From positions 97,092,001 through 97,156,000 of the forward strand of contig JANJGN010000016.1 in the NCBI GenBank assembly GCA_026770705.1: DNA of 64,000 bases, given 5' to 3'. Numbering within the stretch: the first letter of the stretch is position 1; every line of letters begins with the position of its first letter. Shown here piece after piece: positions 19,112-51,051 of this stretch. The translations under genes were made by a program, and so were the position numbers. This stretch comes from Isurus oxyrinchus (Eukaryota). The notes beneath the pieces are model-generated. The model made no database searches. It saw nothing but the letters and a program-made list of their open reading frames with translations, and was not told the origin of the DNA.

Positions 19112-19308
19112 CTGGAAAGGTATTGGGAATAGGATCAGTCACAAAGCCTTAATTTGAGCCAGCATCTCTCACTCTCCATCATCTTCAATACATGGTGGAA
19201 CCAATGAGGTATAAATCTATTTTAGATTTAATATTATTTTCAACCTGGTATTGTACATTGAGGCAGCGTTAATTAGTAATCTCATAGCATTGGGAAATAG
19301 TAATCATA

Positions 19309-19422
19309 GGGCTGCAGCAGTTCAAGAAGGCAGCTCACCGCCACCTTCTCAAGGGCAATTAGGGATGGGCAATAAGTGCTGGCCCAGCCAGCGAAGCCCA
19401 CATCCCATGCATGAATAAAAAA
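19309..19422 (+). mobile_element. Short 3'-terminal fragment of another non-LTR retroelement (CR1/L2-type tail) inserted in the CR1
   Basis: GCAGCAGTTCAAGAAGGCAGCTCACC...GGGATGGGCAATAAGTGCTGGCCCAGCCAGCG...ATGAATAAAAAA with an A-rich end. It interrupts the CR1 frame just after LGNSNH. Confidence 0.7.
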
Positions 19423-19952
19423 TATGTCATTGTTAAGTTTGAAAGTGACTTATTCCAGTCCCAATTGGGAATCTTAAGCTTGAACAAAGCCAATTACATA
19501 GGTTTGAGGGAAGAACTGGCTAAGGTTAATTGGATAAATAGACTAAATACATGGTGGTAAATAAATAGTGGGAAATATTTAAAGAAACAATTCAAAATAT
19601 TCAACAAAATTACATACCATTGAAAAACAAAACTTAAATAAGAGAGACTCGTCCGTGTCTCACTCAGGAACTGCAGGATAGTATTAGATTAAAAAGACAG
19701 GCTGACAATGTGGTAAAGAATTGTGAATACTCTGAGGATTGAGAGAGTTTTAGAAATCAGCAAAGGGCCATCAAAAAGTTGATAAAAAGGGAAAGTAAAT
19801 AGAACATGGGTGTAAACTAGCCAGGAATATAAAAACAGATTGGAAGAGCTTTCCAAGTATATAAAAAGGAAGAGAGTATCTAAAATAAATGTTGATCCCT
19901 TAGAGACAGAAATAAGGGAAATTATCATGGGGAACAAGGAAATGGAGGCATT

Positions 19953-20874
19953 TGTTATGAACACTAAACGCTGTGAGATAGTTTTCATTTTATTGGAATG
20001 GGGGAGAATGATGGAGTTGTCCTGATCTCTGCCTGGCAACAGGCCCATTAAACCTGGTTGCCATAGCGACAGGGAACCCAGGTCAAGCCCTAATGAGAGT
20101 CAGATGTGAGCTTAAACACCTGGGCATAAAGAAAGAGGCAGCTGGCCTTACTGCTGCAAAGGCTAACATACTCTCAGAGCCAAAGAGACCAAAGGATCTG
20201 GGGGAAAAGACCCACAACAGCTGCTGCTATGCCAAGCAGAAGAAAAGGGCTTATTTTTGGGTTACATACAGTACAGAGTGGGTACACATAGTACAGTACA
20301 GAGTGGGTATACTGAGTACAGTAGTGTGGGTATACTGAGTAAAGTACAGAGTGGGTACAGTGAGAGCACACTGCAGAGTGGGCATTGCATTGTCCTTTCG
20401 GCTGGTGAGGACAGAACTCTGTTCAAGAAAACATGGATGGTGAAAAGTCAGACACCACAAATCACCAGAGAGAACCTTGCCTTGGGGAATTTATTTGATT
20501 ATGCTCAAAGGATGAGTGAAGGAAACTTGCTTCAAAAGGACACTGTAATTTTCACTTTGGTGAAGCAGAGACAGGATCTTGTTAACACTGGGAGGAGGTA
20601 GATATTAAACTTAAGATTCCACGTCAATGGAGAGTGTATTCTAATGTATAAACACAGTGTGGGATTTTCAGTAATGTTAAGAAGTTAAAGGAGGGGTACC
20701 TTTTCTGTAGTGTATCAGTTGTCTATTAAGTAATGTTTAATCAGCGTTGATTTTCACTATTGTGTTACAGTAAAAGTCTTAAAACTTGAAATCTTGTCAT
20801 GTAATCCTCTCAGTTGATCACTAGAAAATTCATATCTCTTTTTGAAGTTATCAGTCTCTATGGGGAACATAACA
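19953..20874. mobile_element. Solo LTR (922 bp), Gypsy/ERV-type
   Basis: Terminal inverted repeats TGTTATG...CATAACA and a perfect 4-bp TSD CATT (19949-19952, 20875-20878). Removing it restores the CR1 peptide EMEALNKYF. Confidence 0.88.
20259..20385. repeat. About 5 monomers of satellite 1 embedded in the solo LTR
   Basis: TACAGTACAGAGTGGGTACACATAGTACAGTACAGAGTGGGTATACTGAGTACAG..., same orientation as the main array. Confidence 0.9.
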
Positions 20875-20975
20875 CATTGAACAAATATTTTATGGCCATT
20901 TTCATGGTACAAGATATAAATTTCATGTTAAAAATAGATGACAACCAGAAGAGTGAGGAACTTAAAGTAATTAAT

Positions 20976-21147
20976 CTTTGAGTATCACTGAGAAAAGCCA
21001 TATGTTGTCAAAGCTTCTTGTCTTGCAATCGTCAGGACAATTTGCAAGAATACCAAATTGAACAGGAACAACAATCCCTACTTCATGAGAAGAGAGTGCT
21101 GATTCATTGTTAAGAGGACTTTGATTGGTAGCTGATGACTAGTTAAC
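20976..21147 (-). mobile_element. Probable Penelope-like terminal fragment with a decayed hammerhead motif, inserted in the CR1
   Basis: Interrupts the CR1 peptide LKVIN|ISREK. Minus strand 21040-21005 reads TTGTC-CTGACGA-ttgcaagac-aagAAGCTTt-GACAA: 5-bp stem I, intact CUGANGA box, AAGCUU palindrome, mutated GAAA. Confidence 0.55.
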
Positions 21148-22234
21148 ATTAGCAGAGAAAAAAAAGCTAGTGGAAGAACTAAAATCCAAAAGACCACGAG
21201 GACTTGATAGCCTACAGTGTTCTAAAATAGATAGCAGGAAGAAACAGTGGATGACTATGGTTTTTCAGAATTCCCTGGAATCTAGAGCAGTCCCTGTGGA
21301 TTGGAAGTTAGCAAATGTAACAGTGCTATTCAAGAAAGGAGGGAGAGAGAAAATAGGGAACAACAGGCCAGTTAGCCTGCCATCAGTCATTGGGAATTTG
21401 TTGGAATCTATTACTAAGTCTTAACAGTGCACTTAGAAACTCCTAATGCAATCAGACAAAATCAACATGGTTTTACCAAAAGGCAAATTGTGTTTGCCAA
21501 ATTTATTAGGGTTTTTTGAGGATGTAACTAATAGGGTAGATAAAGGGGAACCAGCAGATGTAGTATACTTGGATTTTCAAAAGGCATTTTATAAGGTGCC
21601 ACACTAAAGATTAATACACAAGATAAGTGGTCATAGAGTTGACGATGATACATTATCATGCATAAAGAATTAGTTAATGGACAGAAAGCAGACATTAGGG
21701 ATAAAGAGGGCATTTAAAAGATGGCAGACTATGATGAGTGGAGTGCCACAAGGGTCAGTGCTGGCATGTCAGCTAGTTACAATCAATATTAATGACTTAG
21801 ATGTAAATACAGAATGTAATGTATCTAAAGTTGCTGATGATACCAAGCTAAGTGGAAAGGTCAGCTGTGGAGAGGACACAGAGAGGGTGTAAAGAGATAT
21901 AGTCAGGTTAGGTGAGTAAGCAGCAAGATGGCAGATGGGGTATAATGTGGGGAAGTGTGAAGTTATCCATTTTGGTCATATGAAAAGAGAAGCAGGATTT
22001 TTGTTAAAAGGTGAGAATCTTGGGTGGACTCACGTAAGGAACACAGAAAGTTAGTATGTAGGTACAGCAAGGAATTAGGAAGGCAAATGGTATGTTGGTC
22101 TTTATTGCTCATGTACCGGAGTACAAGAATAAAGAAGTCTTGCTACAAATGTACAGGGTTTTGGTGAGACCACATCTGGAGTAATGTGCAGTTTTGCTCT
22201 CCATATCTACAGGAGGGTATACTTGCATTACAAG

Positions 22235-22509
22235 TGTTGTAAGTAATTGACGAAGGTCGATAGGTCTTATTAAGGTATACATAGTCTTAGGTAGTTCAAC
22301 AGTAAGTACTAATTAACTATTAGAAACTATATAACAGATACCGCAAAGGTCCAAACTAGGAGCTCTCTCCATGCTTGATTCTGCACACAGATCTGTCCAA
22401 CACTACACTGACCCCTAGGTGTGGGTCATGTGTTCTCTTACATCACTGTGTGGGCGATACTGTACTCAGTACCATGTTAGCCCTTTATGTGCCTGATCTT
22501 TATAATACA
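22235..22509 (-). mobile_element. Probable short solo LTR (~275 bp) inserted in the CR1 3' region
   Basis: TGTTGTAA...TTATAATACA termini (TG...CA). CR1 sequence resumes on both sides (ACTTGCATT... / ...AAGGTTCACTAGA). TSD is not clean (CAAG vs GGAG); strand is tentative. Confidence 0.55.
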
Positions 22510-23019
22510 GGAGTAAGTACTGCAAAGGTTCACTAGATTGGTCCATGGGATGAGGCAGTTGTCCTGAGAGGCTGAGTATTGTGGGCCTATATTATCCAGA
22601 GTTACAAAGAATGAGAGGCGATCTCATCTCTAGAACACAGGGGCACAGTCTAAAGGCAAGTCATTTAGGATGGAGATGAGGAGAAATTTCTTCACTAAGG
22701 AGGTTGTGAATCTTTGGAGTTCTCTATCCCAGAGGACTGTGGATGCTCCATCATTGAATATATTTACGAATGGGAGAGAGGGATTTTAGTCTCTCAGGGA
22801 ACCAAGGGATATGGGAAATGGGAGGGAGAGTGGAGTTGAGGCCAAACATCAGCCATGCTGGTATTGGATGGCGGAGCAGGCATGGATGTGCCATGTGACC
22901 TACTCCTGCTCCTTTTTCCTAATGTTCTTACCATCATTATCATCAGTCTCTCCATCGTTACCACTGTCATCATCTCACACTGCCTGAGGGAAAGCCAGTG
23001 AGGGACCAGTGCCAGACAC

Positions 23020-23433
23020 ATAGAGGTAAAACCAGGCGGGGAGTCAGAGTGCGCAGAGAGGGAAAAAGGATGATAGTGCATCATTGCTGGAAAGCAGTAA
23101 GTGATTGGTTGGTGAGTATTTCTCCTTTTCTTTTTCTAGCACATAGTAGATCATGGATGGGTATCTGAGACCCGTTTGCAATTCCTGTGCCGTGTGGGAT
23201 TTTTCAGGACACTTCACGTATCTTGGGTGACAACGTGTGTAGGAAGTTCCAGCTCGAGCTCAGGATTTCCCAGTTTGAGGGGCGATGGAGTCACTGCCGA
23301 GGGAGGATGAGACTTTACTGAATCTCATAAACATTGAGAGTTCAGGGTAGTAGATGGATGGCCAACAGGGAGAATAGGAAGAGGCAGGAAGTGTAGGAAT
23401 CTGTGAGATGTGTGTCAGTCTCATATTAATACT
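23020..23433 (+). mobile_element. 5' UTR and start of ORF1 of a second CR1 LINE, interrupted by the ERV
   Basis: GTAAGTGATTGGTTGGTGAGTATT leader, then MDGYLRPVCNSCAVWD (CxxC zinc finger) and a LELRISQFE coiled-coil remnant typical of CR1 ORF1. Confidence 0.65.
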
Positions 23434-24018
23434 TGTGGAGGAATAAAATACATGTATAATTGTGAATGAAATAAACTACATGTATAATTGGAAAGGAAAT
23501 TAAAACACATGTATAATGAAATTACTGTAGAATGTCCCCAAACAGTCACGCAGCCAGCACATAAATTAGCAAATCAAAGGCCAGTGCTATCTTCCCAGAC
23601 TAAGGGGCTCCGGATGTCAGATACGGTTGCAAAATCCAAGAGAAAAAAAACTAATGTGTGTGCATTGCCCAAGATATCTAGCCATTAACATTATCTATTT
23701 GCTGAACATCGATTTGCTGAACCATCGACATTGTCCTATTTCCTGAACCATCGACATTGTCCTGTCTATTTGCTAAACCATTGACATTGTCCTGTCTAAT
23801 CGTTAAATCATTAACACTGATCGCTATCCTGAAACTATTGTAATTGCCCAAGTTTCTGTCACGAACCATTTGCTATATCTATGTGTGTAAAGAGGTGTTA
23901 GTCAGAGACTGGTTCACTCCGTTGTATGCGACTAGGCTCTCCATGATATCACAATTTTAATAAAGACTTCCCAGACAAGTCTCCAGGGTCTGAGTGTTCA
24001 CTCCGTTTTTCCGCGACA
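23434..24018 (+). repeat. ERV 5' LTR (585 bp)
   Basis: TGTGGAGGAA...TTCCGCGACA termini, AATAAA at 23959-23964, PBS 2 nt downstream. The first ~257 bp match 32555-32813 at roughly 94-95% by eye. Confidence 0.9.
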
Positions 24019-24020
24019 GA

Positions 24021-24038
24021 TGGCGACGAAGGTGGGAT
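24021..24038 (+). promoter_or_regulatory. Primer binding site complementary to the 3' end of tRNA-Ser(GCU)
   Basis: TGGCGACGAAGGTGGGAT; its reverse complement ATCCCACCTTCGTCGCCA matches the vertebrate tRNA-Ser(GCT) 3' end plus CCA as I recall it. Confidence 0.85.
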
Positions 24039-24378
24039 CCGACTGAAGTCCTGTGGCCTCTTAAGTTGGAGAGGTACCCTCTTAAATTGGAGAGGTAATT
24101 GAAAACCTGGACCGTCGGATCTCTGAAAAAGAACCCTCGCGGAGAAAGGGAGAGACTCTCCTAAGTTGGGGAGAGTACGAACTTCATCCTAGCTGAGAAG
24201 TGAAAGGGGGACGAAAAGCATCCTAGCTGAAAGGAAAAGTGCTTGAAAAAGGGTAGCTTACTGACCAGACTCAAAAAAACCCCAAGGAACTGGAGGACTT
24301 GTTAAGGAACTCTTACACCAGTGAGCGCATAGGGTAGGAAATGCGCTGCGCTGTTAATTGTATTTTCTTTTCAGAAAA

Positions 24379-26650
24379 ATGGGAGGTCTCAACAGCAGAG
24401 CGGGCTCTGCCACTCCCCCCGCTTCTCAAAGTACTAAGAACAAACTGAAACCAGCAAAACCGGATCTTAAATCAGGAACTTTGAAGATGGGTAAGAAAAC
24501 AAAAAAAAAGTAGTAGTGGAATACCCAGGGGTTCAAGTCCCCTGGAGGTGAAAAGTAAGTAATTTCTGTGTTTTCTTTTGTGTCCATTACAGTCCTGAAA
24601 TTGTCCAATATGTTTCTGATTGAGTTAAATGGACTCAAAAGTAAAGGAGAGAGATTCCCACCAACTGGAACTTTTAATTGGGAAAGATTTGAGCGCTTAT
24701 AATATGTTTTAAGGGAGGTAGATAGTCCGCTACTGAATTTTCTGTAACTTAAAAATAAATGAATTGATCTAAGTTACAAGAGCTGTTTGTGCTGAAGAGA
24801 GAGAGAGAGAGAGAAAGGGTACCCCCAGAGGGTTAATGAGTAATTGACAAGCAGCAGCAGAGAAAATGTGAGCTTTCGTCAGTTTGAAGGTCCCTATACG
24901 TGGAGCCTTCAAGATCCCTTTATTCTCCCCACTGCTACTTGAAGCTTCGTTTAGAGTTAAGTTTAATGTTATAGGAATATCGATACATACCTTTATCTAT
25001 GTGTTCGTTTGTGTGCAATGAAGCATTTGTATGTGAGCTTTAATGTGTTTTCTTCCCTGAATTGTCTTTTGTGTGTGTAGTTGAGCACTTTAGAGTCAAA
25101 AGCCCCCTGTTAGATTAAAGGAAAAGTTTATTCAAATATTCCAAAGTTTTGAGTATAAGGTTTGAGTTGAGATTTCTGGCAAAAATCGTAATTTGAAGGT
25201 AGTGTAAAGATAAAACAGGGCTTGCCTTTGTTTTGAACCAATCCTTGTACCACCCCCCTTGCAGACTAGTAGGGAATAACCCTCATCATCAGCTTCCAAG
25301 CTGATTGTGATTAATACATAGGAGTTAGTAATCTAAAATTCTGAGAAAAAGAAATTACTTGAAATTCAGAAGGATTCTAGGAAAACGAAAAGACATAAAC
25401 ACAAGGTCTAGATGGTTCCAATGGATAAAAAAGGGTTTCTTATGAAGAGATGAATTAAATATTAAAGGAAACCTGCTTTCCAAAAGCACTGGAATTTGAA
25501 TTGGGGACGGGACAATCTTGAGATGTAAAGTGCAGTGTAATTTAACAGGTTACTTTTGAATCACTAGGATACTAAGATAAAGAATGTGTCGATAAACATA
25601 CGGAAATTATAACTTGGATACAAATTATTACACATGAAAAAGAGGTTGTTTTAATTTTGATAGTGTAAATTACAGTTCTTACAAAGTTTAAAAATTTGAG
25701 GTTTGGTTCTTGATAAAGTTCTCAAAAGGGAATTTTCATTTTAAAAGATCTGACAACAATTGGCACTAATTCAAGTGCTGCAAGCTTTTGTGTTTGTAAG
25801 TCTTCCCAAAATATGAAGCTAAGCTCAAGACCTTGGCAAAATTTGGCAGAAATCCAATTTTTGGCTGAGTTAATGAATCTGAGATTATTCTAAAAGAAAA
25901 GGGTCAGACATAATTTAGTGGGTTACTTTTAAGACAATAAAATCTTTGAGAAGAAGAAAAGGAAGCAAAGCATGCCAATACCTGATTTCTGTTTTAAAAC
26001 TGGTATGAGAATACTTTATTGGATTGTAAAGTCTCTCCAGACAACCTGAACAAGATAAGCTGGTAGCTGTTGCAAGCGTAAACTGGTATGAGGAAAGTAG
26101 GAGAATGAGTCAGGGAAAGAGGACATAATGTACAAACTGTTTTAAGGGAAATGAATTTGATAATCTGGCCATCAACTGAGGCATTGGAACGGGGGAGATA
26201 AGCAAAGATCTAGAGACAGAGATCCCCATTAAAATGGAATAGTTAATATGGCTTAAAGAGTAAGGAAACATTTTAAACAATCAAGACAATAGAGAAACTG
26301 AACTCAAGAGATCCTTAGGATGATCATGATCAGGAAAGAAAAACTTAGAGGTAAAGCTATGAGGAATCTGTAGTTCAGGAATTGAAATATAAGGAGAAAT
26401 AATACTTAACAGCAATTTACCAAAATATGGATACAGGTAAAGGGAAAGCTGGAAAAAGGCTAAATAGATGTATTATTGATTATATTAATGTGCCTGTGAG
26501 CTACAAAAAGTAAAACCATAGGATTAACACCTTGATGACAGGCAGAGTTAAGCAGTTCTCAGAGAACCATCACTGGAAGTGAAGACACTGAGCCATTGAA
26601 AGAAAAGATAAGAAGGTGCATTGTAGAGTTGTTTAAGGAATTGAGATCTG
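24379..26650 (+). pseudogene. gag: Highly decayed gag-like region
   Basis: ATG GGA (MGGLNSR, myristoylation-type start) directly after a pyrimidine-tract/AG acceptor. RFPPTGTFNWERF at ~24652 resembles the matrix WP..GTF motif. The rest is A-rich with many stops; the 3' limit is uncertain. Confidence 0.45.
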
Positions 26651-26688
26651 ACATGAGACAGCAGCAGGAGAAAGTAAACTGGAAGGAG

Positions 26689-27220
26689 TGGGGGTGCCTA
26701 CCCAAATGGATTCAGATCAGGGAACTAATTTCACAGGCAGAGTCATTAAAGAAGTGTGTAATCTTATGGAGATTAAACAGAAATTCCATATTCCTTACCA
26801 TCTCCAGAGTCCAGGGATGATGCAAAGGATGAACTGAACTTTAAAAAAAATCAATCAAGAGACGGAACAGCCCAATATTCTAATGCGCTGTGGGCTACCC
26901 CAAGCAGGACCACCAGGTTCACCCCATTTGAAATGATAACAGGTAAGGGCCATGCAATTACCTGAAGGTATTATAGTAGGAGTTGTAGGGCCAGAGAGGA
27001 AAAATACAGGACAATGAAAGGGAATTAAATAGGCAATTACATAAGTTGAGAGAGGAAGTTAGCGACTGACAGATGATTAAGGATATGGATACAGGCAAAC
27101 CCAAAGAGCAACAATGGACCATACCAGGTAATTATGACAGGTGATTCATGCGCACTTGTAGATACAAGAACAAGAAGTAAATGGAGGTATTACACACAGT
27201 TAAAGTTACATGACAATTGA
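26689..27220 (+). pseudogene. pol: Integrase remnant 1 (core C-terminal half plus GPY/F tail)
   Basis: WGVPTQMDSDQGTNFTG...FHIPYHLQSPGMMQRMN*TLKK, then NGPYQVIMTGDSCALVDTRTRSKWRYYTQLKL. Confidence 0.85.
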
Positions 27221-28170
27221 CCAAGCGGTAACCCGGAGAACGGGAACCGATGTTAATGTCTCCACAGATCTACAATCCTGGTCGTGGGCCTTTCAGTACT
27301 GGCAACAAGGTCGGGGATCATCACAACTCATTCTGCACCGCAGGAGGAACTTTGGCACAGCATGGACAGTGCCGAATGCGACGCGCAATGGGGAATGATA
27401 AATGTAACGGTAGGAGAACAAATGCTTTCAAATTGTAGTAAGGGTTTGCTTCAGATCGAGCATGGGAGGTCCGCCACTACTCAGCCACCTCCCACCTCTA
27501 CTTTCACAGTCTGAGTAGAGGAAATTGAAGCCCCTCAAACCACACTGACTGATCCATCTTGTCCGACTATGCATCCAGGACCGACGAATGGTTTGGTACT
27601 GGTTAATCAGAAGTTTTGTATGGTAATGTACACCACGAGCTGGTACCCATAGTCTTTAATGTATCCGGGATCGTCCTGCCCCAATGGTACTCAACCCATA
27701 CCCAAGCACTCTATACGGCTCTGACGCGCCTGTTGCTGACTGAAGCAGTTCAGTTCAGTGGCGAGATGCGATTAGGCTTGGGAGGGAACCACGTTAAGCG
27801 CAGCCTGATAAATGACGCTGCTACAATATTCAATATAGGGACATCATTGGTTAACCCAAAGCCTGGTACCGTGCTCGAAAGTCATGCGGGGACTATCAAT
27901 AAATTAACTGAAATAGGGAAAAATATTTCAGACGAAGCAAGCAGGAATGATATATGTGACACCTATGGATCTTGGGCACTGGATCAAGCCCGAGAAAATT
28001 TAAGACAGAGTTAAGAAGGGGTAGTCCCTGTATGGGTAACTAATGAGCATTTATTAATCTCTCACAACACAGGAATCATGACTTGACCGGTTGCCAGCTC
28101 AGGGGTTTAACACGTGTATGTTGAATGTATAGTGAATAGTAATATGCTAATAGGCATTGTATTAGTAATA
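27210..28170 (+). pseudogene. env: env-like remnant 1, non-gamma type (possibly F-protein-like class I fusion glycoprotein)
   Basis: Lies directly after the integrase. LYGNVHHELVPIVFNVSGIVLP, basic cleavage site HVKR followed by hydrophobic SLINDAATIFNIGTSLVN, a heptad-like helix, then LIGIVLVIP(VIP) read across the Penelope TSD. No CWIC or ISD motif seen. Confidence 0.55.
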
Positions 28171-29894
28171 GAAACTTCCTTCTACCTCTCCCTGGAACAT
28201 AACCCCACCACTGAACATCAAGCCATTGTTTCCAGGACTGTCACTGACCTCATGTCCTCTCGGGATCTTCCTTCCACAGCTTCCAACCTGATAGTCGCCC
28301 AACCTCGGACGGTCCGCTTCTACCTCCTACCCAAAATCCACAAACAGAACTGCCCCGGTAGACCGATCGTGTCAGCTTGCTCCTGCCCCACAGAACTCAT
28401 TTCTCGTTATCTTGACTCCCTTCTCTCTCTCCTTGTCCAGTCCCTTCCCAGCTACATCCGTGATTCCTCTGACACCTTACATCACATCAACAATTTCCAG
28501 TTCCCTGGCCCCAACTGTTTCCTTTTCACCATGGACATCCAATCCCTCTATACCTCCATCCCCCACCAGGATGGTCTGAGGGCCCTTAGCTTCTTCCTCG
28601 AACAGAGGCCCAAACAATCCCCATCCACCACTACTCTCCTACGTCTGGCTGAACTTGTTCTCACACTGAACAATTTCTCCTTCAACTCCTCTCACTTCCT
28701 CCAAATAAAAGATGTGGCTATGGGTACCCACATGGGCCCCAGCTATGCCTGTCTCTTTATGGGGTATGTGGGACATTCCTTGTTCCAGTCCCAGTCCGGC
28801 CCCCTTCCACAACACTTTCTCCGGTACATCGATGATTACTTCGGTGCTGCTTCATGCTCTCGTCGGGACTTGGAAAAGTTTATTAATTTTGTTTCCAATC
28901 TCCACCCCTCCATCATTTTCACGTGGTCCATCTCTGACACTTCCCTTCCCTTCCCTGACTTCTCTGTCTCAATCTCTGGTGATAGACTGTCCATCAATAA
29001 CCATTACAAGCCTACTGACTCCCACAGCTACCTCGACTACAGCTTCTCACACCCTGCTTCCTGTAAGGACTCCATCCCATTCTCTCAGTTCCTTCGCCTC
29101 CGTCGCATCTGTTCCGATGATGCTACCTTCAAAAACAGTTCCTCTGACATGTCCTCCTTCTTCCTTAACCGAGGTTTTCCACCCATGGTCGTTGGCAGGG
29201 CCTTCAACCGTGTCTGGCCCATCTCCTGCGCATCCGCCCTCATGGCTTCTCCTCCCTCCCAGAAACATGACAGGGTCCCCCTTGTCCTCACTTATCACCC
29301 CACCAGCCTCCGCATTCAAAGGATCATCCTCCACCATTTCCACCAACTCCAGCATGATGCCACCACCAAACACATCTTCCCTTCACCCCCCTGTCGGCAT
29401 TCCGTAGGGATCGTTCCCTCTGGGACACCCTGGTCCACTCCTCCATCACCCCCTACTCCTCAACCCCCACCTATGGCACCACCCCATGCCCACGCAAAAG
29501 CTGTAACACCTGCCCCTTCACTTCCTCTCTCCTCACCGTCCAAGGGCCCAAACACTCCTTTCAAGTGAAGCAGCATTTCACTTGCATTTCCCCCAACTTA
29601 GTCTACTGCATTCGTTGCTCCCAATGTGGTCTCCTCTACATTGGAGAGACCAAATGTAAACTGGGCGACTGCTTTGCAGAACACCTGCAGTCTGTCCGCA
29701 AGAATGACCCAAACCTCCCTGTCGCTTGCCATTTTAACACTCCACCCTGCTCTCTTGCCCACATGTCTGTCCTTGGCTTGCTGCATTGTTCCAGTGAAGC
29801 CCAACGCAAACTGGAGGAACAACACCTCATCTTCCGACTAGGCACCTTACAGCCTTCCGGACTGAATATTGAATTCAACAACTTTAGGTCTTGA
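28171..29894 (+). pseudogene. Penelope RT plus GIY-YIG endonuclease, one frameshift near 29390
   Basis: FYLLPKIHK, GRPIVS, MDIQSLYTSIP, AMGTHMGPSYA, RYIDD; Cys linker CPRKSCNTC in the shifted frame; VYCIRCSQCGLLYIGET and PSGLN (GIY-YIG). Confidence 0.92.
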
Positions 29895-30277
29895 ACTCCC
29901 TCCTCCATCCCCACCCCATTTCTGTTTCTTCCCCCTTCCTTTTATTTTTTTCCAATAAATTATATAGATTTTTCTTTTCCCACCTATTTCCATTATTTTT
30001 AAATATTTTAAAATCTTTTATGCTCCCCCACCCTGACTAGAGCTATACCTTGAGTGCCCTACCATCCATTCTTAATTAGCACATTCATTTAGATAATATC
30101 ACCACCTTCAACACCTCTGTGTTCTTTTGTTCTGTTGTCTGTGACATCTTTTGATGATCTGCTTCTATCACTGCTTGTTTGTCCCTACAACCACACCACC
30201 GCCCTCCACTTCTCCCCCCTCCACAAACCTTAAACTTTAAACAAGCTTATATTTCACCCCTTCCTTGGACTCACTCA

Positions 30278-30316
30278 AGTTCTGTTGAAGAGTCATGAGG
30301 ACTCGAAACGTCAACT
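30278..30316 (+). ncRNA. Minimal type I hammerhead ribozyme-like motif in the Penelope 3' repeat (variant core CUGUUGA)
   Basis: AGTT-CTGTTGA-A-GAGTC-atgag-GACTC-GAA-ACGT-C^AACT: stem I AGUU/AACU, stem II GAGUC/GACUC, palindromic ACGU stem III, predicted GUC cleavage after 30312. Confidence 0.7.
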
Positions 30317-30404
30317 CTTTTCTTCTGCACCGATGCTGCCAGACCTGCTGAGTTTTTTCAGGTAATTCTGTTTTTGTATTGTATTAGTAATACCTGTCAT
30401 ACCT

Positions 30405-31015
30405 ATGTCAATGACATAACCCAGGCAAGACGCCCACAGTGACTGCTGGTACGGGACCCCAGGCATGGGGCCCATTTGTAGACCTACAAATGGACTTTAT
30501 ACAAATGCCTAAATGTATGGAATATAATTATGTTTCAGTTCTAGTATGTTTGTTCTCATGATGGATGGAGACATATCCCACCCGACGGAATGATGCTGAT
30601 GTTGTTGTAAAATTGTTGGTCATTTTACTGCTAAAGTGATAAAGGAACTGTTGAAGGCCTTACAATGCAACCATCACCTTTCCTGCCCATACTACCCCCA
30701 GTCTACAAGCTAAATTATGTGAAGAAACCAGTTTGAAAGGTACTGAAGCTCTACCCTTGGCACTCATGACTATGTGCTCTCACCCTAACTGTCTCAAGAG
30801 CTTGCATATACAGGTAGTAGAAGCTCAGAAGAAAGCCCACCATTGAAGATTGTCATCAATACCAGCCCAAGGACCTAGTCCTGGTAAAGACCTTCAGGAC
30901 AAAGAACTTTTTGGAACCTCGACGGGAAGAACATTTCCAAGTCATGCTCACCACCCAAATGGCCATAAAGGTTGAAGGATGCCCTTGTGGATCCATGCAT
31001 CGCGCATCAAGCAGA
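30405..31015 (+). pseudogene. pol: Integrase remnant 2 (gamma/epsilon-like)
   Basis: CQ*HNPGK, WGPFVDLQMDFIQMPKC, LVCLFS, PYYPQS, QPKDLVLVKTF, FQVMLTTQMAIKVEG, WIHASRIK. Confidence 0.88.
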
Positions 31016-31029
31016 CGCTGACCTTGGAC

Positions 31030-31200
31030 TTGTGCAAGAACTTTAACTGAGCCGTCAGAACGCTGACTCTGGTTTGAATCCTGTCCTGCGTGGTCCTTGC
31101 AGGGGCATGAACTACCAATTCTGCTGTTCAATGAATGCAGGCTGTAGCCTCGCAAGTTAATCAGACTAAATGTTGGATTTGTACTCATTTTCCTCTATGC
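31030..31200 (+). pseudogene. env: N-terminal fragment of a gamma-type env (env remnant 2)
   Basis: AVASQVNQTKCWICTHFP with CWIC at 31171-31182, shortly downstream of WIHASRIK. Confidence 0.7.
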
Positions 31201-31225
31201 AAAACAGCAGCTGAATTGCAAGAAA

Positions 31226-31325
31226 GGGTGGAAAGGACCCTAACTTGTGCTGCTAACAACTCAAAAGGCCCTGAAGATTAAAGGGAAGGAAGACTGGGTC
31301 CACACCACTCATGGTAAAAAACATT
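31226..31325 (+). pseudogene. pol: Integrase C-terminal remnant 3
   Basis: WKGP*LVLLTTQKALKIKGKEDWVHTTHGKK, matching the WxGPxxVLLTT...WxHxxxxK tail. Confidence 0.8.
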
Positions 31326-31371
31326 GTCCAGCAGTCCTAGAATTGTCATTATCAGTGAATTAACTTGTATT

Positions 31372-32525
31372 ATGTATTGGATACTGTTCTTTGTTATATT
31401 CCGCAGGGTATACCCAAGGGACCCTCACCCAAACACCTTTTCGTCTCTATGCCGCACCTATGCTAGAGAAGTAGGACAGGGTGCCTGTTGGATATGCGCC
31501 CAGACTCCCCAACATGGGGGAGAGACAGGTAATTGGCGTGCTGTTCCTCTAAATGACACTGAGTATGCTGACGTTCGAACTTTTAATATTGTAACACCGC
31601 AGCACAATATGTTTAGGGGTTAGTTCCGTTGATCGCCACCTGCCAATGGGTGAAACTATACAAAACATGGGATTAGGATTAGACCCCCACTAGAGCCGGT
31701 AAATGCTACTTGTTGGTGTTCCATCATTACACTCAGCACTTATGATCTGGGACGGAGCTCCTGTCATACTACAGTATCATACATCTTTGACCTATCTGTC
31801 CGAAAGCCCGCCGGTACTGAACATCCACCAGACTCTCTTAATGGTACATACTGGGTTTGTGGAGATAAAGCTTACCCCTAGTTGCCTGGGATGCCTCAAC
31901 TATCCCTTTTCTCTAATGTTCCTGTAGGAAATTGGGAAAAGAACGAAACCACTCCCACCTGGAGTGGCTGTTGCTACCTAACATACTTAAATCCCTATCT
32001 TCACCATATAAGTAAATCAGATATGCACTCACATCGGCGCCTACATCGCCATGGCATCTCGGAAACTGGATGATTGCTTTGCCCCCTTATGGATCGGCTC
32101 GTAATTCACGTGAAATTATCAACCTGGCAGCTGCGCTTGAAAAAGTTGCTAATTCAACGGCTGATGCTCTGATTAAAACATAGAAGCAGATCTCAGCTAG
32201 CACCACTAAAATGATAATATTACGCCTAACCGTATTACAGAACAGGATGGCCCTTGACTTCCTTCTAGCTGAAAAAGGTGGCACTTGTGCTATGATAGGC
32301 TCAGAGTGCTGCCCTTATGTACCCGATGTCTCTGAAAATATCACTGACTTGGGACAGCATGTCATGGACAAGGTACAAGAAATAAAGAAGGCTGGGGAAA
32401 GTTCGAGCAACTTTTAGAGAAGCTCACTGGTGGGGAGAGAAAGTTTATTCGCCAGGGACCCGCCTTTTCCTCATGGTTATGAACTCCCATATGATGAAGA
32501 AGATATTATTCCTCACTGGTGTTAA
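31372..32525 (+). pseudogene. env: Gamma-type env remnant 3 (SU plus TM ectodomain), disrupted, no membrane anchor seen
   Basis: MYWILFFVIF signal-like start, ACWICAQTP, NGTYWVCGDKAYP*LP, WSGCCYL, RRLHR furin-like site, ISD LQNRMALDFLLAEKGG, and CX6CC (CAMIGSECC). Confidence 0.9.
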
Positions 32526-32528
32526 TCT

Positions 32529-32554
32529 AAAAGAAAAGATTAACAAGGAGGGAC
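32529..32554 (+). promoter_or_regulatory. Polypurine tract
   Basis: AAAAGAAAAGATTAACAAGGAGGGAC directly before the TG of the 3' LTR. Confidence 0.7.
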
Positions 32555-32815
32555 TGTGGAGGAATAAAATACATGTATAATTGTGAATGAAATAAACTAC
32601 ATGTATAACTGGGAAAGTACATTGAAATACATGTATAATGAAATTACTGTAGAATGCCCCCAAACAGTCACGCAGCCAGCACATAAATTAGCAAATCAAA
32701 GGGCCAGTGCTATCTGCCCAGACAAAGGGGCTCCGGATGTCAGATACTGTTGCAAAATCCAAGAGAGAAAAAACTATTGTGTGTGCATTGCCCAAGATAT
32801 GTAGCCATTAACACT
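32555..32815 (+). repeat. ERV 3' LTR, truncated after ~260 bp
   Basis: Matches 23434-23690 and stops at GCCATTAACA, where an inverted Penelope tail begins. Confidence 0.9.
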
Positions 32816-32916
32816 ACAAGAACAGAATTACCTGGAAAAACTCAGCAGGTCTGGCAGCATCGGCGGAGAAGAAAAGAGTTGACGTTTCGAGTCCTCATGA
32901 CCCTTCGACAGAACTT
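32816..32916 (-). mobile_element. Penelope 3' terminal fragment containing the whole hammerhead motif (32877-32915)
   Basis: Reverse complement of 30277-30377 with few differences; core CUGUCGA, stem II GGGUC/GACUC; no TSD. Confidence 0.88.
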
Positions 32917-34529
32917 CAGGGTTGCATCTGGACAAGACTGGGACCAATGTCCTTGTGGGGAGGTATTGATTGTGGAGGGTTTAAACTAAATTGGCAGGGG
33001 GATGGGCACTGTCCTATAGAAGTAGAAAAGTGGACTATGGTGTATAAAGGAGTGAGGGTGTTGGACAGAACTAGAGAAGGCAGTCGCACATATTTGATAG
33101 GAGTGGAGTTAGAAGGACTATGACATATACAATGACAGGATTGCAATGCATGTATGTAAATGCACACAGTGTGGTGAATGAAGTTACTGAGCTACAGTCA
33201 CAAAGAGCTGTGTTGTTACAATAGTGGAGATGTCGTGAAAATGGTGAGGACTGTGTGCTCAATATTCAAGGTAATAAAGTGTTCTGAAAAAAATAAGGAG
33301 AGAGAAAAGGGAGCTGGGGTGACAGTACTGATTGGGGAAGAGATTGTCGTGTTGGAAAGAGGGGATGTCCGTGAGAGGGAAAAGACAGAATCCATTTGAT
33401 TGGAGTTCGGAAGTAAAAAGGGGATGAACACATGACTGAGGGTATTCTATAGACTCCAAATAGTGAGCGAGAGAGATAGAGGAACAAATCTGCAGGGAAT
33501 TGGCAGAGATGGACAAGAACTATAGAGTGGTGAATTTGGGGATTTTAATAACCCAAATATCGATTGGGATAATATGAGAGTAAAGGGTAGGGAGGGAGAT
33601 GAATTTCTGAAATGTGTTCAGGAGAATTTCCTTGATCAGTGTGTTGCCAGTCCAACTAGAAAGGAGGTATTGCTGGACCTGGTGCTGGGAATGAGGTGGG
33701 CCAAGGGACCAAGTGTCTGGGGGGAAGCATTTGGGTAACAGTGATCATTGTACCATTGTAATGGAGAAGAGCGAGCAACAATCTAAAGTAGATGGTCTAA
33801 ATGGTAAAAGGGCTCATTTCAATGGGAGAAGAAGGGAAAAAGCCAGAGTACCTTAGAACAAAATATTGACAGGAAAATCTATAACAGAACAATGGGGGAT
33901 CTTTAAGGAGGAGATCTTTCAGATATAGGCTAGGTACATTTCAAAAAGGGTGAAAGGGAGGGGCAATAAAGCTAGATATCCTTGGATGTCAAGGGAGATA
34001 GACAATATGATGAAACAAAAAAAAGGAGTGCGTGATGCATGTCAGGGGAATTCTTCAAGTGAGAACAAGGTCAAATACAATCGGTAGAGAGGGGAAGTGA
34101 AGAGGAAATAAGCCTGGCAAAGAGACAGAGTCTGAGAATAGAATGGCAGTCAACATAAAAGGGAATCCAAAAATCTTCTACCAGCGTGTAAATAGTAAAT
34201 GGGTAGTAAGAGGTGGAGTAGGTCTGATGAGGGACAGAGAGGATGAGATATGCTAAGAGTTGCAGGGCTAGGATAGCATAATTAATGAGTTCTTCGTATC
34301 AGTGTTTACCAAGGAGGAGGAATCAATAAAAATATTTGTAGCAGAGAAAGTGGAGGCAATGAGTAGTGTGAAAATTGAGAGGGAGGAATTATCGGGAAGG
34401 CTGGATATCCTTAGACTGGATATGTCAGCTGGTCCAGATGGCTTACATCCCAGGTAGTTAAAGGAACTGGGAGTGGATATATTGGGAGGGATTGTTATAA
34501 TCTTCCAGTCTTCCCTAGACACAGGGGAG
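32917..34529 (+). mobile_element. Continuation of the second CR1: end of ORF1 esterase, ORF2 endonuclease and linker
   Basis: GLHLDKTGTNVL...EGLN*, YVNAHSV, GVFYRL, GDFNNPNIDW, LLDLVLG, LGNSDH, NEFFVSVFTKE, GPDGLHPR, IIFQSSLDTGE. Ends abruptly before the RT domain. Confidence 0.87.
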
Positions 34530-37500
34530 ACGCATTGGCCTAGGTCTGGGTACGAGGGAGACGCAGTGTCCTGGGTCTGGGTACATGGGAGACACAGTGT
34601 CCTGGGTCTGGATACAAGGGAGATGCAGCGTCATGGGTCTGGGTACAGGGGAGATGCAGTTTTCTGGGTCTGGGTACAGAGGGGAAGCAGTGTCCTTAGT
34701 CTGGGTACAAGGGAGACGCAGTGTCCTGGCTCTTGGTATGAGGGAGATGCAGTGTCCTGTGTCTCGGAAAGGGGAGAAGCAGTGTCCTGGCGCTGGGTAC
34801 ATGGGAGACACAGTATCCTGGGTCTGGTTACAGGGGAGATGCAGTGTCCTGGGTCTGGGTACAGGGGCGACGCAGTGTCATGGGTCTGGATACAGGGAAG
34901 ACGCAGTGTCCTGCGTCTGGGAACAGGGAGATGACGTGTCCTGGGTCTGGTTATGAGGGAGATGCAGTGTCCTGGGTCTGGGTACAGGGGAGACGCAGTG
35001 TCCTGGGTCTGGTTACAGGGGAGATGCGTTCTCCTGGGACTGGGTAGAGCGCAGATGCAGTGTCCAGGATCTGGGTACAGGGGAGACGCAGTGTTCTGGG
35101 TTTGGGTACATGGGAGAAGCAGCGTCCTCAGTCTGGTTACGAGCAAGACGCAGTGTCCTGGCTCAGGGTACGAGGGAGATGCAGTGTTCTGGGTCTGGGT
35201 ACAGGGGAGAAGCAGTGTCCTGGGTCTGGGTATAGGGGAGATGCAGTGTCCTGGGTCTGGGTACAGGGGAAAAGCAGTCTCCTGGGTCTGGATACAGGGG
35301 CGTTGCAGTGTCCTGGGTCAGGATACGAGGGAGACGAAGTTTCCTGGGTCAGGATACCAGGGAGACTGAGTGTCCTGGGTCTGGGTATAGGGAGGATGCA
35401 GTGTCGTGCCTCTGGGAACAGGGGAGACGACGTGTCCTGGATCTGGTTATGAGGGAGACTCAGTGTCCTGGGTCAGGGTACGAGGAAGACGCAGTGCACT
35501 GGGTCTGTGTTCAGGGGAGATGCAGAGACCTGGGTCTGGGTACAGGGGAGACACAGTGACGTGGGACTGGTTACAAGGGAGACGCATTCTCCTGTGTCTG
35601 TGTAGAGCAGAGACGCAGTGTCCTGGGTCTGGATACGAGGGAGACCCAGCATCCTGGGTCTGGGTATGAGGGAGACGCAGTGTCCTGGGTCTGAGCACAT
35701 GGGAGACACTGTGTCCTGGGTCTGGGTACAGGGGAGACACAGTGTCCTGGGTCTGGATACAAGGGAGATGCAGTGTCCTGGGTCTGGGTACAGGGGAGAC
35801 GCAGTTTCCTGGGTCTGGGTACAGAGGGGAAGCAGTGTCCTTATTCTGGGTATAAGGGAGATGCAGTGTCCTGGCTCTTGGTATGAGGGAGATTTAGTGT
35901 CCTGAGTCTGGGTACAGGGGAGAAGCAGTGTTCTGGCTCTGGGTACGTGGGAGACACAGTATCCTGGGTCTGGTTACAGGGGCGAAGCAGTGTCCTGGGT
36001 CTGGTTGCAGGGGAGATGCAGTGTCCTGTGTCTGGTTACAGGGGCGACGCAGTGTCATGGTTCTGGGTACAGGGAAGACGCAGTGTCCTGCATCTGGGAA
36101 CAGGGAGATGACGTGTCCTGGGTCTGGTTATGAGGGAGATGCAGTGTCCTGGGTCTGGGTACAGGTGCAAAGCAGTGTCCTGGGTCTGGGTATAGGGGAG
36201 AAGCAGTGTCCTGGGTCTGGGTATAGGGGAGATGCAGTGTCCTGGGACTGGGTATAGGGGAGATGCAGTGTCCTGGGTCTGGGTACTGGGGAAAAGCAGT
36301 CTCCTGGGTCTGGATACAGGGGAGTCGCAGTGTCCAGGGTCAGGATACAAGGGAGACGGAGTGTCCTGGGTCTGGGTATAGGGAGGACGCAGTGTCCTGC
36401 CTCTGGGAACAGGGGAGACGATGTGTCCTGGATCTGGTTATGAGGGAGACGCAGTGTCCTGGGTCAGGGTACGAGGAAGACGCAGTGCACTGGGTCTGTG
36501 TACAGGGGAGATGCAGAGTCCTGGGTCTGGGTACAGGGGAGACACAGTGACGTGGGACTGGTTACAAGGGAGACGCATTCTCCTAGGTCTGTGTAGAGCG
36601 GAGACGCAGTGTCCTGAGTCTGGGTACAGGGGAGATGCAGTGTCCTGTGTCTGGGTACAGGGGAGATGCAATGTCCTGGTTCTGGGTACAGGGGAACGCA
36701 GTGTCCTGGGTCTGGGTAGAGAGTATACGCAGAGTTCTGCATCAGGGTACGAGGGAGACGCAGTGATCTGGGTCTGGGTTGGAGGGAGTCGCAGAGTCCT
36801 GGGTCTGGGTACGAGGGAGACGCAGTTTCCTGGGTCTAGGTACGAGGGTGACGCAGTGTCCTGGGACTGCGGATGAGTGAGACGCAGTGTCCTGTGTCGG
36901 GGTACGAGGGAGTCGCAGTTTCCTGGGTCTAGGTATGAGGGAGACGCAGTGTCCTCGGTCTGGGTACGAGAGAGATGCTGTGTGCCGGGTCTGGGTACAC
37001 GGGAGACGCAGTTTCCTGCGTCTCAGTACGGACCAGATGCGGTGTCCTGCGTCTGGGTACAGGGGAGAAGCAGTGTCCTGGGTCTGGTTACAGGTGAGAC
37101 GCAGTATCCTGAGTCTGGGTATGAACGACAGACAGTTTCCTGTGTCTGGTTATAGGGGAAATGCAGTTTCCGGAGTTTGGTACAGTGGGGAGGGATACGC
37201 TGTGTGCTGGGTTTGGGTACGAGGGAAACGCAGTGTCTTGGGTCTGTGTAAAGGGGACATGCAGTGTCCTGGGTCTGGATACAGGGGAGAAGCATTGTCC
37301 TGCTTCTCGGTAGAGGGGAAACACAGTGTCCTGGGTCTGGTTACGAGGGAGACGCAGTGTCCTGGGTCTGGGTACGGAGAAGACACAGTGTCCTTGTTCT
37401 GGGTACCGGGGAGACACAGTGTCCTGGGTTTGGGTACAAGGGAGACGCAGAGTCCTGTGTCTGGGTACAGGGGAGATGCAGTATCCGGGGTTTGGTACCG

Positions 37501-40500
37501 TGGGGACGCAGTGTCCTGGGATTGGGTACAGGGGGTATGCAGTGTCCCAGGCTGGGTACGAGGGAGATGCAGTGTCCTGAGTATGGGTAGAGGGTATATG
37601 CAGAGTCCTGCGTCCGGATACGAGGGAGACGCAGTGACCAGGGTCTGGGTTGGAGGGAGTCGCAGAGTCCTGTCTCTGGGTACAGGGGTGATGCAGTGTC
37701 TTGGGTATGGCTACAGGGGAGACGCAGAGTCCTGTGTCTGGGTACAGGGGCAACACATTTCCTGGGTCCGGGCACATGGGAGACGCAGTATCCTGGGTCA
37801 GGGTTCAGGGGTGACGCAGTGTCCTGGGTCAGGGTTCAGGGAAGACGCAGTGTCCTGGGTCTGGTTACGAGGGAGAGGCAGTGTCCTGGGTCTAATTACA
37901 GGGGAGACACAGTGTCCTGTGTCTGGGTACAAGGTAGATGCATTGTCTTGGATCTGGGTACAGGGGAGGTGCAGTGTCCTGTGTCTGGATACGACGGAGA
38001 CGCTGTGTCCTGGGTCTGGGTACAGGCGAGACGCAGTGTCTTGTGTCTGGGTACGAGGGAGTCACAAATTCCTGGGTCTGAGTACGAGGGAGAAGCTGTT
38101 TCCTGGTCTGGGTACCAGGGAGACGCAGTGTCCTGGGTCTGGGTACGAGGGAGATGCAGTGTCCTGGGTCAGGGTACGAGAGAGAAGCTGAGTGCTGAGT
38201 CTGGGTATGAGGTAAACGCAGTGACCTGTGTCTGTGTAAAGGGGAGATGCAGTGTACTGGGTCTGGTTATGGGGGAGACGCAGTGTCCTGGGTCTGCGTA
38301 CAGGGGAGACGCAGTGTCCTGAGTCTGGGTAGAGGGTATACGCAGAGTTCTGCATCCGTGTACGAGGGAGACGCAGTGTCCTGGGTCTGGGTTGGAGGGA
38401 GTCGCAAGGTCCTGGGTCTGGGGATGAGTGAGACGCATGGTCCTTTGTCTGGGTACGAGGGTGATGCAGTGTCCTGGGTCTGGGTACGAGGTAAATTCAG
38501 TGTCCTGGGTCTGTGTAAAGGGGAGGTGCAGTGTCCTGTGTCTGGATACGATGGAGACGCTGTGTCCTGGGCCTGGGTACAGGGAAGACGCAGGGTCCTG
38601 AGTCTGGGTAGAGGGTATACGCAGAGTCCTGCGTCCGGGTACAAGGGAGACGCAGTGACCTGGGTCTGGGTTGGAGGGAGTCGCAGTGTCCTGGGTCTGG
38701 GTACGACGGAGAAGCTGTTTCCTGGGTCTGGGTACGAATGAGAAGCTGTTTCCTGGGTCTGGGTATGAGGGAGATGCAGTGTTTTGGGTCTGGGTACGAG
38801 AGAGAATCTGTGTGCTGGGTCTGGGTATGAGGTAAATGCATTGTCTTGGGCCTGACTACATGGGAGACGCAGAGTCCTGTGTCTGGGTACAGGGGAGACA
38901 CATTTCCTGGGTCCGGGCACATGGGAGACGCAGTGTCCTGGGTCTGGTTACAGGGGAGAGCCATTGTGTTGGGTCTGGGTACAGGGGAAACGCAGTGTCC
39001 TGGGTCTGGGTATGAGGTAGACGCAGTGTCCTGGGTCTGGGTACGAGGGAGATGCAGTGTCCTGGGTCGGGGTACGAGGGAGACGCAGTGTCCTGGGCCT
39101 GGGTACAGGGGAGACGCAGTGTCCTGGTTCTGGCTATCAGGGAGATGCAGTGTCCTAGTTCTGGTTTACAGGGGAGATGCAGTATCCTGATTCTGGGTAC
39201 AGGGTAGACGCAGTGTCCTGATTCTGGGTACAGGGGAAACGCCGTGTCGTGAGCCTGGATACAGGGGAGACGCAGTGTCCTGGGTCTGTGTATGAGGGAG
39301 ACGCAGTATCCTGGATCTGGGTACAGGGTTGATGCAGTGTCCTGCATCTGGGTACGAGGGAGACGAAGTGTCCTGGGCTTTGGTACAGGGAACACGGAGT
39401 GTCCTGGGTCTGGTTACAGAGAAGATGCAGAGTCCTGGGTCTGGGTACAGGTGAGATGCAGTTTCCTGGGTCTGGTTACAGGGGAAAAGCAGTGTCCTCG
39501 GTCTGGGTACGACGGAGAAGCTGTTTCCTGGGTCTGGGTACGAATGAGAAGCTGTTTCCTGGGTCTGGGTATGAGGGAGATGCAGTGTTTTGGGTCTGGG
39601 TACGAAGGAAACGCATTGTCCTGGGCCTGGTTACAGGGGAGACATTTTGTCCTGGGTCTGGGTATCAGGGAGACGCAGTGTCCTGGTTGTATTTACAGGG
39701 GAGATGCAGTGTCTTGGACCTGGATACGAGTGAGACGCAGTTTCCTTGGTCTGGGTACTAGGGATACGCAGTGTCCTGTGTCTGGGTATGAGTGAGACAC
39801 AGTTTCCTTGGTCTGGGTACGAGGGTGACACTGTGCTGGGTCGGGGTACGAGGGAGACACAGTTTCCTGGGTCTAGGTTCGAGGGAGACGCAGTGTTCCG
39901 AGGGTGGGTACGAGAGAGACGCTGTGTTCTGGGTCTGGATACCAGGGAGACGCAGTATCCTGGGTCTGGGTACGCGGGAGACGCATGTTCTGGGTCTGGG
40001 TACAAGGGAGATGCAGTTTCCTGGGTCTAGGTACGTGGGAGACGCAGTGTCCTGGGTCTGGGTACGAGAGAGAAACTGTGTGCTGGGTCTGGGTACGAAG
40101 GAGAAGCAGTGTCCTTCGTCGGGGTATGAGGGAGAAGCTGTGTGCTGGGTCTGGGTATGAGGTAAACGCAGTGTCCAGGGTCTGTGTAAAGGGGAGATGC
40201 AGTGTCCTGGGTCTGGGTACAGGGGAGACGCAGTGTCCTGAGTTTGGGTAGAGGGTATACGCAGAGTCCTGCGTCCGGGTACAAGGGAGACGCAGTGACC
40301 AGGGTCTGGGTTGGAGGGAGTCGCAGTGTCCTGGGTCTGGGTACGAGAGAGAGGCTGTGTGCTGGGTCTGGGTATGAGGGAGACGCAGTGTCCTGGGTCT
40401 GGGTACAGAGGAGACACAGTGTCCTGGTTCTGGGTACCGGTGAGACACAGTGTCCTAGGTTTGGGTACAAGGGAGACGCAGAGTCCTGTGTCTGGGTACA

Positions 40501-51047: not shown

Positions 51048-51051
51048 TTGT

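Follow-up and report, generated by a model that had tools for sequence, protein, structure and literature searches.

A defective shark provirus with three tandem integrase-envelope modules from distinct donors, one of them with a putative Loki-like envelope

The 64,000-nucleotide stretch of the Isurus oxyrinchus assembly GCA_026770705.1 analyzed here (contig JANJGN010000016.1, positions 97,092,001 to 97,156,000 of the forward strand; hereafter the window) contains an endogenous retrovirus (ERV) in which one pair of long terminal repeats (LTRs) encloses three tandem modules, each consisting of an integrase (IN) segment followed by an envelope gene (env) segment. The modules come from three distinct donors and all lie in the sense direction (backbone 5' end, IN1-env1', IN2-env2', IN3'-env3, backbone 3' end; primes, cut segments); the element has lost its coding capacity and later received a Penelope-like insertion. 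The explanation that we favor, and hold to be on balance probable, is a defective, non-autonomous ERV mosaic of the Harlequin/recKoRV type, built by serial template switches that kept the pol-env junction of each donor. More tentatively, and as a doubtful extension of this reading, the copy could represent a once-mobile shark ERV family recording RNA-level recombination between a lokiretrovirus-like (Loki-like) lineage with an F-type env and two class I retroviruses, with three pol-env junctions in tandem.

Results

An earlier first-pass annotation of this DNA had described one LTR pair, three integrase-envelope modules and no internal LTR. The motifs that it named are present in plus-strand frames where it had put them, and blastn with the 5' LTR bears out the overall frame: within the window its only match is the 3' LTR (260 of 586 nt, 94.3%), all others being 25 nt or shorter with E > 1, and no internal LTR was found. 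The 3' LTR differs from the first 260 nt of the 5' LTR by 13 substitutions (5.0%, 95% interval 2.7-8.4%) and two one-base gaps. The terminal LTR of the annotation is thus present, but only its first ~260 nt remain, the other ~325 nt being absent from the window. Because the end of the 3' LTR and the adjoining flank are lost, the target-site duplication of the whole provirus is unreadable. The single site found to resemble a primer-binding site (PBS) is the one after the 5' LTR, which may correspond to tRNA Ser. Counting a full 3' LTR and excluding the Penelope insertion, the element measures 7,484 nt (~7.5 kb). Pfam, run on 17 translated stretches, recognized no capsid, protease or reverse transcriptase (RT) between the LTRs, and the ordered gag, pro, pol and env of a replication-competent provirus are not found.

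Module 1 opens inside an integrase. IN1 gave the Pfam family rve at E 2.6e-4, below the curated cut-off, and its core matches solved integrases in the PDB (best E 6e-10); a homolog search with the 59-residue IN1 core yielded zero candidates. The env1 segment spans residues 167-423 of the 714-residue relative P0010, with ~45 residues missing internally, and then ends. The env1-family profile aligns no further than position 292 of 501, its next match having E 0.63, and in all six frames of the window it finds no displaced 3' part of env1. By motif inventory env1 has a basic cleavage site, VKR, and no CWIC, ISD (immunosuppressive domain) or CX6CC. In the relative P0012, from Chiloscyllium, an integrase tail precedes env, and this tail matches the tail of IN1 only (0 of 1000 shuffles as good, versus 622 for IN2 and 78 for IN3). 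This implies that IN1 and env1 arrived as one block.

Judged from their sequences, modules 2 and 3 are probably class I pieces with gamma-type env and an integrase C-terminal domain of the murine leukemia virus type. The IN2 tail gave MLVIN_C at E 7.5e-8, above the cut-off, and matched PDB entry 2m9u ('Integrase p46') at E 3e-3; the rve match of IN2 (E 1.6e-3) lies below the curated cut-off, and its N-terminal piece has no relevant PDB match. For the IN3 tail the corresponding values are 6.1e-10 for MLVIN_C, above the cut-off, and E 3.6e-7 for 2m9u. The first-pass annotation had called all three integrase segments tails, which is inaccurate, as IN1 starts in the catalytic core and IN2 at the zinc-finger end. 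The env2 segment is homologous to the N-terminus of env3 (0 of 1000 shuffles as good). CWIC occurs in both and ISD and CX6CC in env3 only, so that of the gamma-type features (CxxC in the surface subunit, SU; ISD and CX6CC in the transmembrane subunit, TM) env3 has all three and env2 reaches CWIC only. Pfam assigned env3 to TLV_coat (E 2.6e-7, above the cut-off); no membrane anchor was found in any of its frames (hydropathy maximum 1.11 versus 2.99 in P0017). Seven relatives of env3 were found among 275 candidates, and the five with named hosts come from four sharks and one teleost. The closest, P0016 from Carcharodon carcharias, has 85% identity to env3 in TM and 56% in SU; two insertions occur in both and in none of the remaining four relatives with named hosts. 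P0016, too, stops short of the anchor; we considered this as a deletion shared with env3 and dropped the idea, since the end is possibly its own stop codon.

The modules are not copies of one another. All-against-all blastn gave no match longer than 29 nt besides overlapping segments. Aligned as DNA, the integrase tails agree at 55/91 (IN2/IN3), 52/87 (IN1/IN3) and 41/89 nt (IN1/IN2), where shuffles give 53-55% and the LTRs 95%; since the IN2 and IN3 tails share only 60% DNA identity, no recent duplication links them. Between the IN1 and IN3 tails there is a weak likeness (15 of 1000 protein shuffles and 0 of 300 DNA shuffles as good). Neither the env1-family profile nor the gamma-type profile detects sequences of the other group (best E 0.07 among 6 sequences and 0.4 among 5). 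These results uphold two further claims of the annotation, that the locus is not a tandem duplication and that at least two envelope classes are present.

The breaks between the modules are ordered in that the left breaks all fall in env, except for J0 (~26688) in the 5' region, and the right starts all fall in integrase. A rough estimate with assumed lengths puts the chance of three modules starting inside integrase by random deletion at 0.004.

The family to which env1 belongs, at 35% identity, is confined to sharks as far as its hosts are named. Nine proteins with 32-42% identity to env1 were found among 1.84 billion representatives at E <= 0.001; eight of them have named hosts, and all eight are sharks. 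A search from a full-length family member found nine shark proteins among 6,454 candidates, P0010 included; three hits without a named host (P0008, P0018 and P0022) were excluded from alignments and host counts. The family (P0010, P0011, P0012, P0001-P0007, P0009 and P0013-P0015) covers Mustelus, Chiloscyllium, Scyliorhinus, Heterodontus and Pristiophorus. P0010, a Mustelus protein of 714 residues, has a signal, an RSKR cleavage site and a C-terminal hydrophobic stretch, and no ISD or CX6CC. Its sequence looks complete, and its seven cluster members suggest a young multicopy element.

Several observations tentatively connect this family with envelopes of the F type, akin to the fusion proteins of paramyxoviruses such as measles virus (PF00523), and with lokiretroviruses (here and below, published work is represented by the passages of each source that were compared). 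By Atlas features P0010 lies at 0.91-0.93 to clusters with the Fusion_gly, Baculo_F and Gypsy families, with agreement of all 10 of the best family-bearing matches, a result that the Atlas itself rates as weak given a recognition of 1608, below its 2300 mark, and full agreement likewise in one third of shuffles. Compared by eye with the Loki Env entries in the supplement of PMC7947760, P0010 has the same motifs in the same order, and the hand-counted spacings between four Env anchors are 49/53, 49/45 and 57/54 residues (Loki/P0010). The IN1 motifs FHIPYH and TPFEM are also present, by eye, in the Loki IN entries of that supplement. The basic cleavage site and the absence of gamma-type ISD and CX6CC are further features of the module 1 donor.

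Other results count against a Loki-type origin of module 1. With the env1 piece of the window alone, the Atlas gave nothing above 0.79; none of the env1-family members run through Pfam, 12 in one set and 9 in another, gave a fusion family; and the PDB search of the family gave no match, including none of the P0010 family to foamy Env. The C-terminus of IN1 is short and GPY-type, unlike the Loki form. The IN1 core is equally close to the IN of human immunodeficiency virus (HIV; 23/49) and to one Loki entry of the supplement (23/51, counted by eye), and we dropped its likeness to Loki IN as a discriminator, HIV IN being equally close. Foamy Env is also F-related (PMC11468914), and a cartilaginous-fish foamy ERV may have been the donor of module 1.

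Weighing these observations, we describe the env1 family as apparently F-like and unlike a known orthoretroviral env, and the donor of module 1 as putatively Loki-like, without filing it as a lokiretrovirus. The annotation had correctly stated that env1 lacks CWIC and ISD, but had overlooked this apparent F-like (Loki-type) character. Sharks thus appear to hold a Loki-like env family. The table in PMC7947760 gives zero lokiretroviruses in six chondrichthyan genomes (three orectolobiform, one carcharhiniform, one rajiform and one chimaeriform), if its columns have the meaning given in the legend of its Fig. 1; Chiloscyllium and Scyliorhinus, both screened there, carry the env1 family.

Table 1. 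Features of the provirus and its insertions, in window coordinates.
Feature	Position	Strand	Basis or remark
5' LTR	23434..24018	+	TG...CA, 585 nt
PBS-like 18-mer, begins TGGCG	24021..24038	+	two bases past 5' LTR
Leader and partly AT-rich 5' region; possible gag remnants	24019..26687	+	composition; no credible Pfam match
IN1, integrase core to C-terminus, frameshifted	26688..27230	+	Pfam, PDB, P0012 tail match
env1, putative F-like (Loki-type) envelope, 5' 60% only	27250..28170	+	internal in-frame gap, stops, frameshift; ~3 more codons at 30393-30404
Penelope target-site duplication, left copy, 15 nt	28156..28170	+	
5'-truncated Penelope-like retroelement (RT and GIY-YIG)	28171..30377	+	Pfam; later insertion
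Penelope target-site duplication, right copy, 15 nt	30378..30392	+	
J1, env1-IN2 junction	30393..30405	+	breakpoint ambiguous by ~12 nt
IN2, class I integrase, zinc-finger end to C-terminus	30406..31020	+	internal gaps, frameshifts
env2, signal region to CWIC, gamma-type, then cut	31030..31200	+	homology to env3 start
J2, env2-IN3 junction	~31200-31228	+	
IN3, class I integrase C-terminal tail	31223..31325	+	MLVIN_C, PDB
env3, gamma-type (CWIC, ISD, CX6CC)	31348..32430	+	stops, frameshift, no membrane anchor
Short purine-rich tract	32544..32554	+	abuts 3' LTR start; read from sequence
3' LTR, first ~260 nt only	32555..32810	+	match to 5' LTR
Penelope 3' end fragment	32811..32919	-	93% to 30274-30382; stands where rest of 3' LTR lost

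Genomic setting and Penelope insertions

The window is mostly satellite DNA, with a 25-mer array up to ~18,700, a 31-mer array at 34,525-51,048 and a 29-mer array at 51,053-64,000. The first satellite (1-18700) seemingly holds larger exact repeats, as equal blastn scores are spaced 1,314 nt apart. Between the satellites the provirus occupies a 16-kb unique island within debris of a long interspersed nuclear element (LINE), presumably of CR1 type, with RT upstream (E 4.8e-12) and endonuclease downstream (E 0.002); this copy is inserted into the LINE. An exon-like open reading frame at 18801-19148 on the minus strand has a weak fibronectin type III match (E 0.03), and given this frame the provirus may lie antisense in a host-gene intron.

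The differences between the LTRs (23434-23693 versus 32555-32816) comprise 8 transversions and 5 transitions, a ratio unusual for neutral decay, and U3 contains short tandem repeats at 23429-23517 and 23712-23798 (28 nt, 26-30 nt units). The 5' region (24021-26683) gave no credible Pfam match in three frames, and the one stretch of it tried against the PDB (24400-24780) gave no match; Rfam on 19000-35000 gave a single match with E 0.098, far below the cut-off. A short reading-frame remnant at 24390-24780, behind a splice-acceptor-like site (24363-24375), has no Pfam or PDB match and carries an FPPTGTF motif that may be matrix-like. The interval 24780-26687 is AT-rich and CpG-poor (observed/expected 0.10-0.28), and further donors may be hidden in it.

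The internal Penelope is a younger element, with 0 stops in 573 codons. The annotation had proposed removing 28171-30392 in silico; the Penelope itself ends at 30377, and the rest is the right duplication copy. A second short minus-strand Penelope 3' end, at 51303-51384, is 95% identical to the internal copy and lies 250 nt inside the 29-mer satellite.

Discussion

The serial template switching that we consider on balance probable could have proceeded as follows. The LTRs, the primer site, the purine tract and IN3-env3 would stem from a class I backbone virus with gamma-type env. During reverse transcription in helper particles, the growing minus strand would have switched from the IN3 tail to the env of another class I virus, with no long homology to guide it. 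A further round would have taken it from the integrase of that virus to the env of a Loki-like virus, and from IN1 back to the 5' region of the backbone. Each jump from the integrase of one genome to the env of another would have added a pol-env junction rather than swapped one. A retroviral particle carries two RNAs, and three donors would therefore call for at least two rounds and for intermediates that were mobile. Most of gag-pol would have been lost, leaving ~7.5 kb, and the copy would have entered the LINE, decayed and later received the Penelope insertions. The single matching LTR pair, the lack of a third LTR or primer site and the lack of a displaced env1 half all argue for template switching, and the annotation's proposal of a non-autonomous mosaic from three retroviruses is, on this one copy, also our best reading.

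The pattern of decay bears on when the modules died. In frames that we chose ourselves, and with 3 of the 17 lying in the loosely anchored start of env2, we count 17 stops in 1,015 codons compared with 3.1-5.5 expected from LTR divergence. They are distributed as 6/421, 5/234 and 6/360 over modules 1, 2 and 3, which are thus similarly decayed, and this hints that the modules may already have been dead before this copy integrated.

A number of points weigh against this account. The choice of frames and the loosely anchored stops weaken the stop excess, as does its composition: 11 of the 17 stops are TGA, TAA and TAG together numbering 6 against 1.9-3.9 expected (P 0.01-0.19), and CpG decay bears on the TGA excess, one of three LTR CpG sites being different between the LTRs. 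No homology was found at the junctions, whose longest repeats are 9-11 nt, to unrelated places, with only the Penelope duplication otherwise. DNA-level loss has occurred at the locus, in the 3' LTR, and the internal Penelope lies at most ~12 nt from J1 (rough chance 0.014), which is compatible with local DNA rearrangement. No precedent for co-packaging a Loki-like RNA with that of class I appears in the passages compared. Finally, the mosaic is known from one copy, with no second copy within the window, and the key criterion is a multi-locus one, namely the same junctions between different flanks.

Some of these points are accommodated if two further proviruses in the same orientation were nested in the class I provirus and deletions then removed the four inner LTRs and most of the coding sequence, the product never having been mobile. 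In its favor, the 3' LTR has plainly lost DNA, Penelope adjoins J1, and long satellites flank the locus, a 16-kb island. Mosaics are also known to arise by secondary integration (PMC4724089), and distant lineages need not have been co-packaged. We nevertheless regard this course as unlikely: there is no LTR remnant, second PBS or displaced env1 half, and it requires two same-strand insertions and three deletions all ending in integrase (rough 0.001). It also predicts that the inner modules are younger, yet they are no less decayed than module 3. The annotation's rejection of simple nesting is borne out by the missing LTR remnant and env1 half, but does not extend to nesting followed by deletion or splicing. 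Since env splice acceptors lie in IN, nested same-sense proviruses transcribed from the outer LTR could have lost their inner LTRs by splicing from a cryptic donor to an env acceptor, the RNA then being packaged and re-integrated. Such a route would account for the module starts inside integrase and the missing LTR traces and would fit the equal decay of the modules; with IN1 and IN2 beginning ~560 and ~630 nt upstream of env, and a J1 interval without an AG exon end, it seems to us decidedly improbable.

An assembly chimera of three loci might be suspected where satellites dominate the window, but no junction falls in repeated sequence, both the LTR pair and the Penelope duplication hold together across J1, and the Penelope frames are free of stops, which makes it very improbable. 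Functional serial capture of envelopes by a replicating multi-envelope virus, one sense of the serial env capture proposed in the annotation, would be in keeping with the common env swapping in anamniote ERVs (10.1101/2021.11.23.469661; PMC10536682); since all three envelopes are broken, serial capture of working envelopes is unsupported. With env1 and env2 stopping at the junctions, env3 without an anchor and no recognizable RT, protease or capsid 5' of IN, we give it only a slim chance. Hardly credible is an origin of the modules by ancient tandem duplication of the pol-env junction of a single virus, with divergence afterwards. It could draw on the homology of the IN2 and IN3 tails and of env2 and env3, and on the weak likeness of the IN1 and IN3 tails, but the tails are far less alike than the LTRs, and for module 1 it is already contradicted by envelope profiles that do not detect each other and by shark relatives of env1 with their own IN tail.

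In the titles and abstract openings of the literature surveyed, with most subscription papers outside this scope, we found no three pol-env junctions in one provirus, no Loki x class I recombinant and no shark lokiretroviruses. If the junctions recur elsewhere, Loki-like and class I viruses would have shared particles or transcripts in one host. The mosaic would then represent recombination across the deepest retroviral split and show an intermediate for swapping an envelope of one fusion-protein class for another, and it would bear on the question, raised in PMC7947760 and PMC9040795, of how lokiretroviruses and other retroviruses came by unrelated envelopes. In several shark genera the F-like env family is apparently intact, and a neighboring RT would bear directly on the existence of shark lokiretroviruses.

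Comparison with known systems

Among known systems, the closest in construction are the mosaic human ERVs treated in PMC4724089, together with criteria for re-integration and 'env snatching'. One of these, the class I element Harlequin, is a defective mosaic of several ERV groups with one LTR type, ascribed to co-packaging and polymerase jumps, and the shark element likewise has the same LTR at both ends without a third internal LTR and sense segments from distinct ERV lineages. Harlequin is multicopy and, in the passages compared, drew on class I donors alone, whereas the shark element has three tandem pol-env junctions, a putative Loki-like donor and one copy. In recKoRV (KoRV x PhER; PMC6112702) the backbone ends are also kept while a foreign internal segment replaces coding sequence, so that no intact virus is encoded and a helper is needed; recKoRV has two donors, is young and shows its breakpoints in many copies, in contrast to three donors and old decay here.

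For module 1 the comparison is with lokiretroviruses (PMC7947760; further sources PMC9040795, PMC12440569 and PMC13524379), which it resembles in the basic cleavage site, the F-like features, the order and spacing of Env motifs by eye and the two IN motifs. Lokiretroviruses are defined by RT phylogeny, while the shark element has no RT; moreover, the N-terminus of the shark env family bears an additional Cys-rich region, and the IN1 C-terminus does not have the Loki form. Foamy and foamy-like ERVs (PMC11468914, PMC5512871), the latter present in a chimaera, also have an F-related Env, but the P0010 family shows no PDB sequence match to foamy Env. The env2 and env3 motifs resemble those of gamma-type env ERVs of cartilaginous fish (10.1101/2021.11.23.469661; 10.64898/2026.05.06.723177, the latter describing shark gamma-type envs), and their closest proteins come from sharks; in the mosaic, by contrast, both are fragmentary and stacked in one element.

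Recombination between pol and env is frequent in anamniotes (10.1101/2021.11.23.469661; PMC10536682), and in the literature compared, PMC8672886 included, known mosaic ERVs join members of one class, or class I env to class III pol. Defective mosaic ERVs are therefore a known kind of element; the shark provirus stands out in keeping three junctions in tandem and in having a donor with an apparently F-like env.

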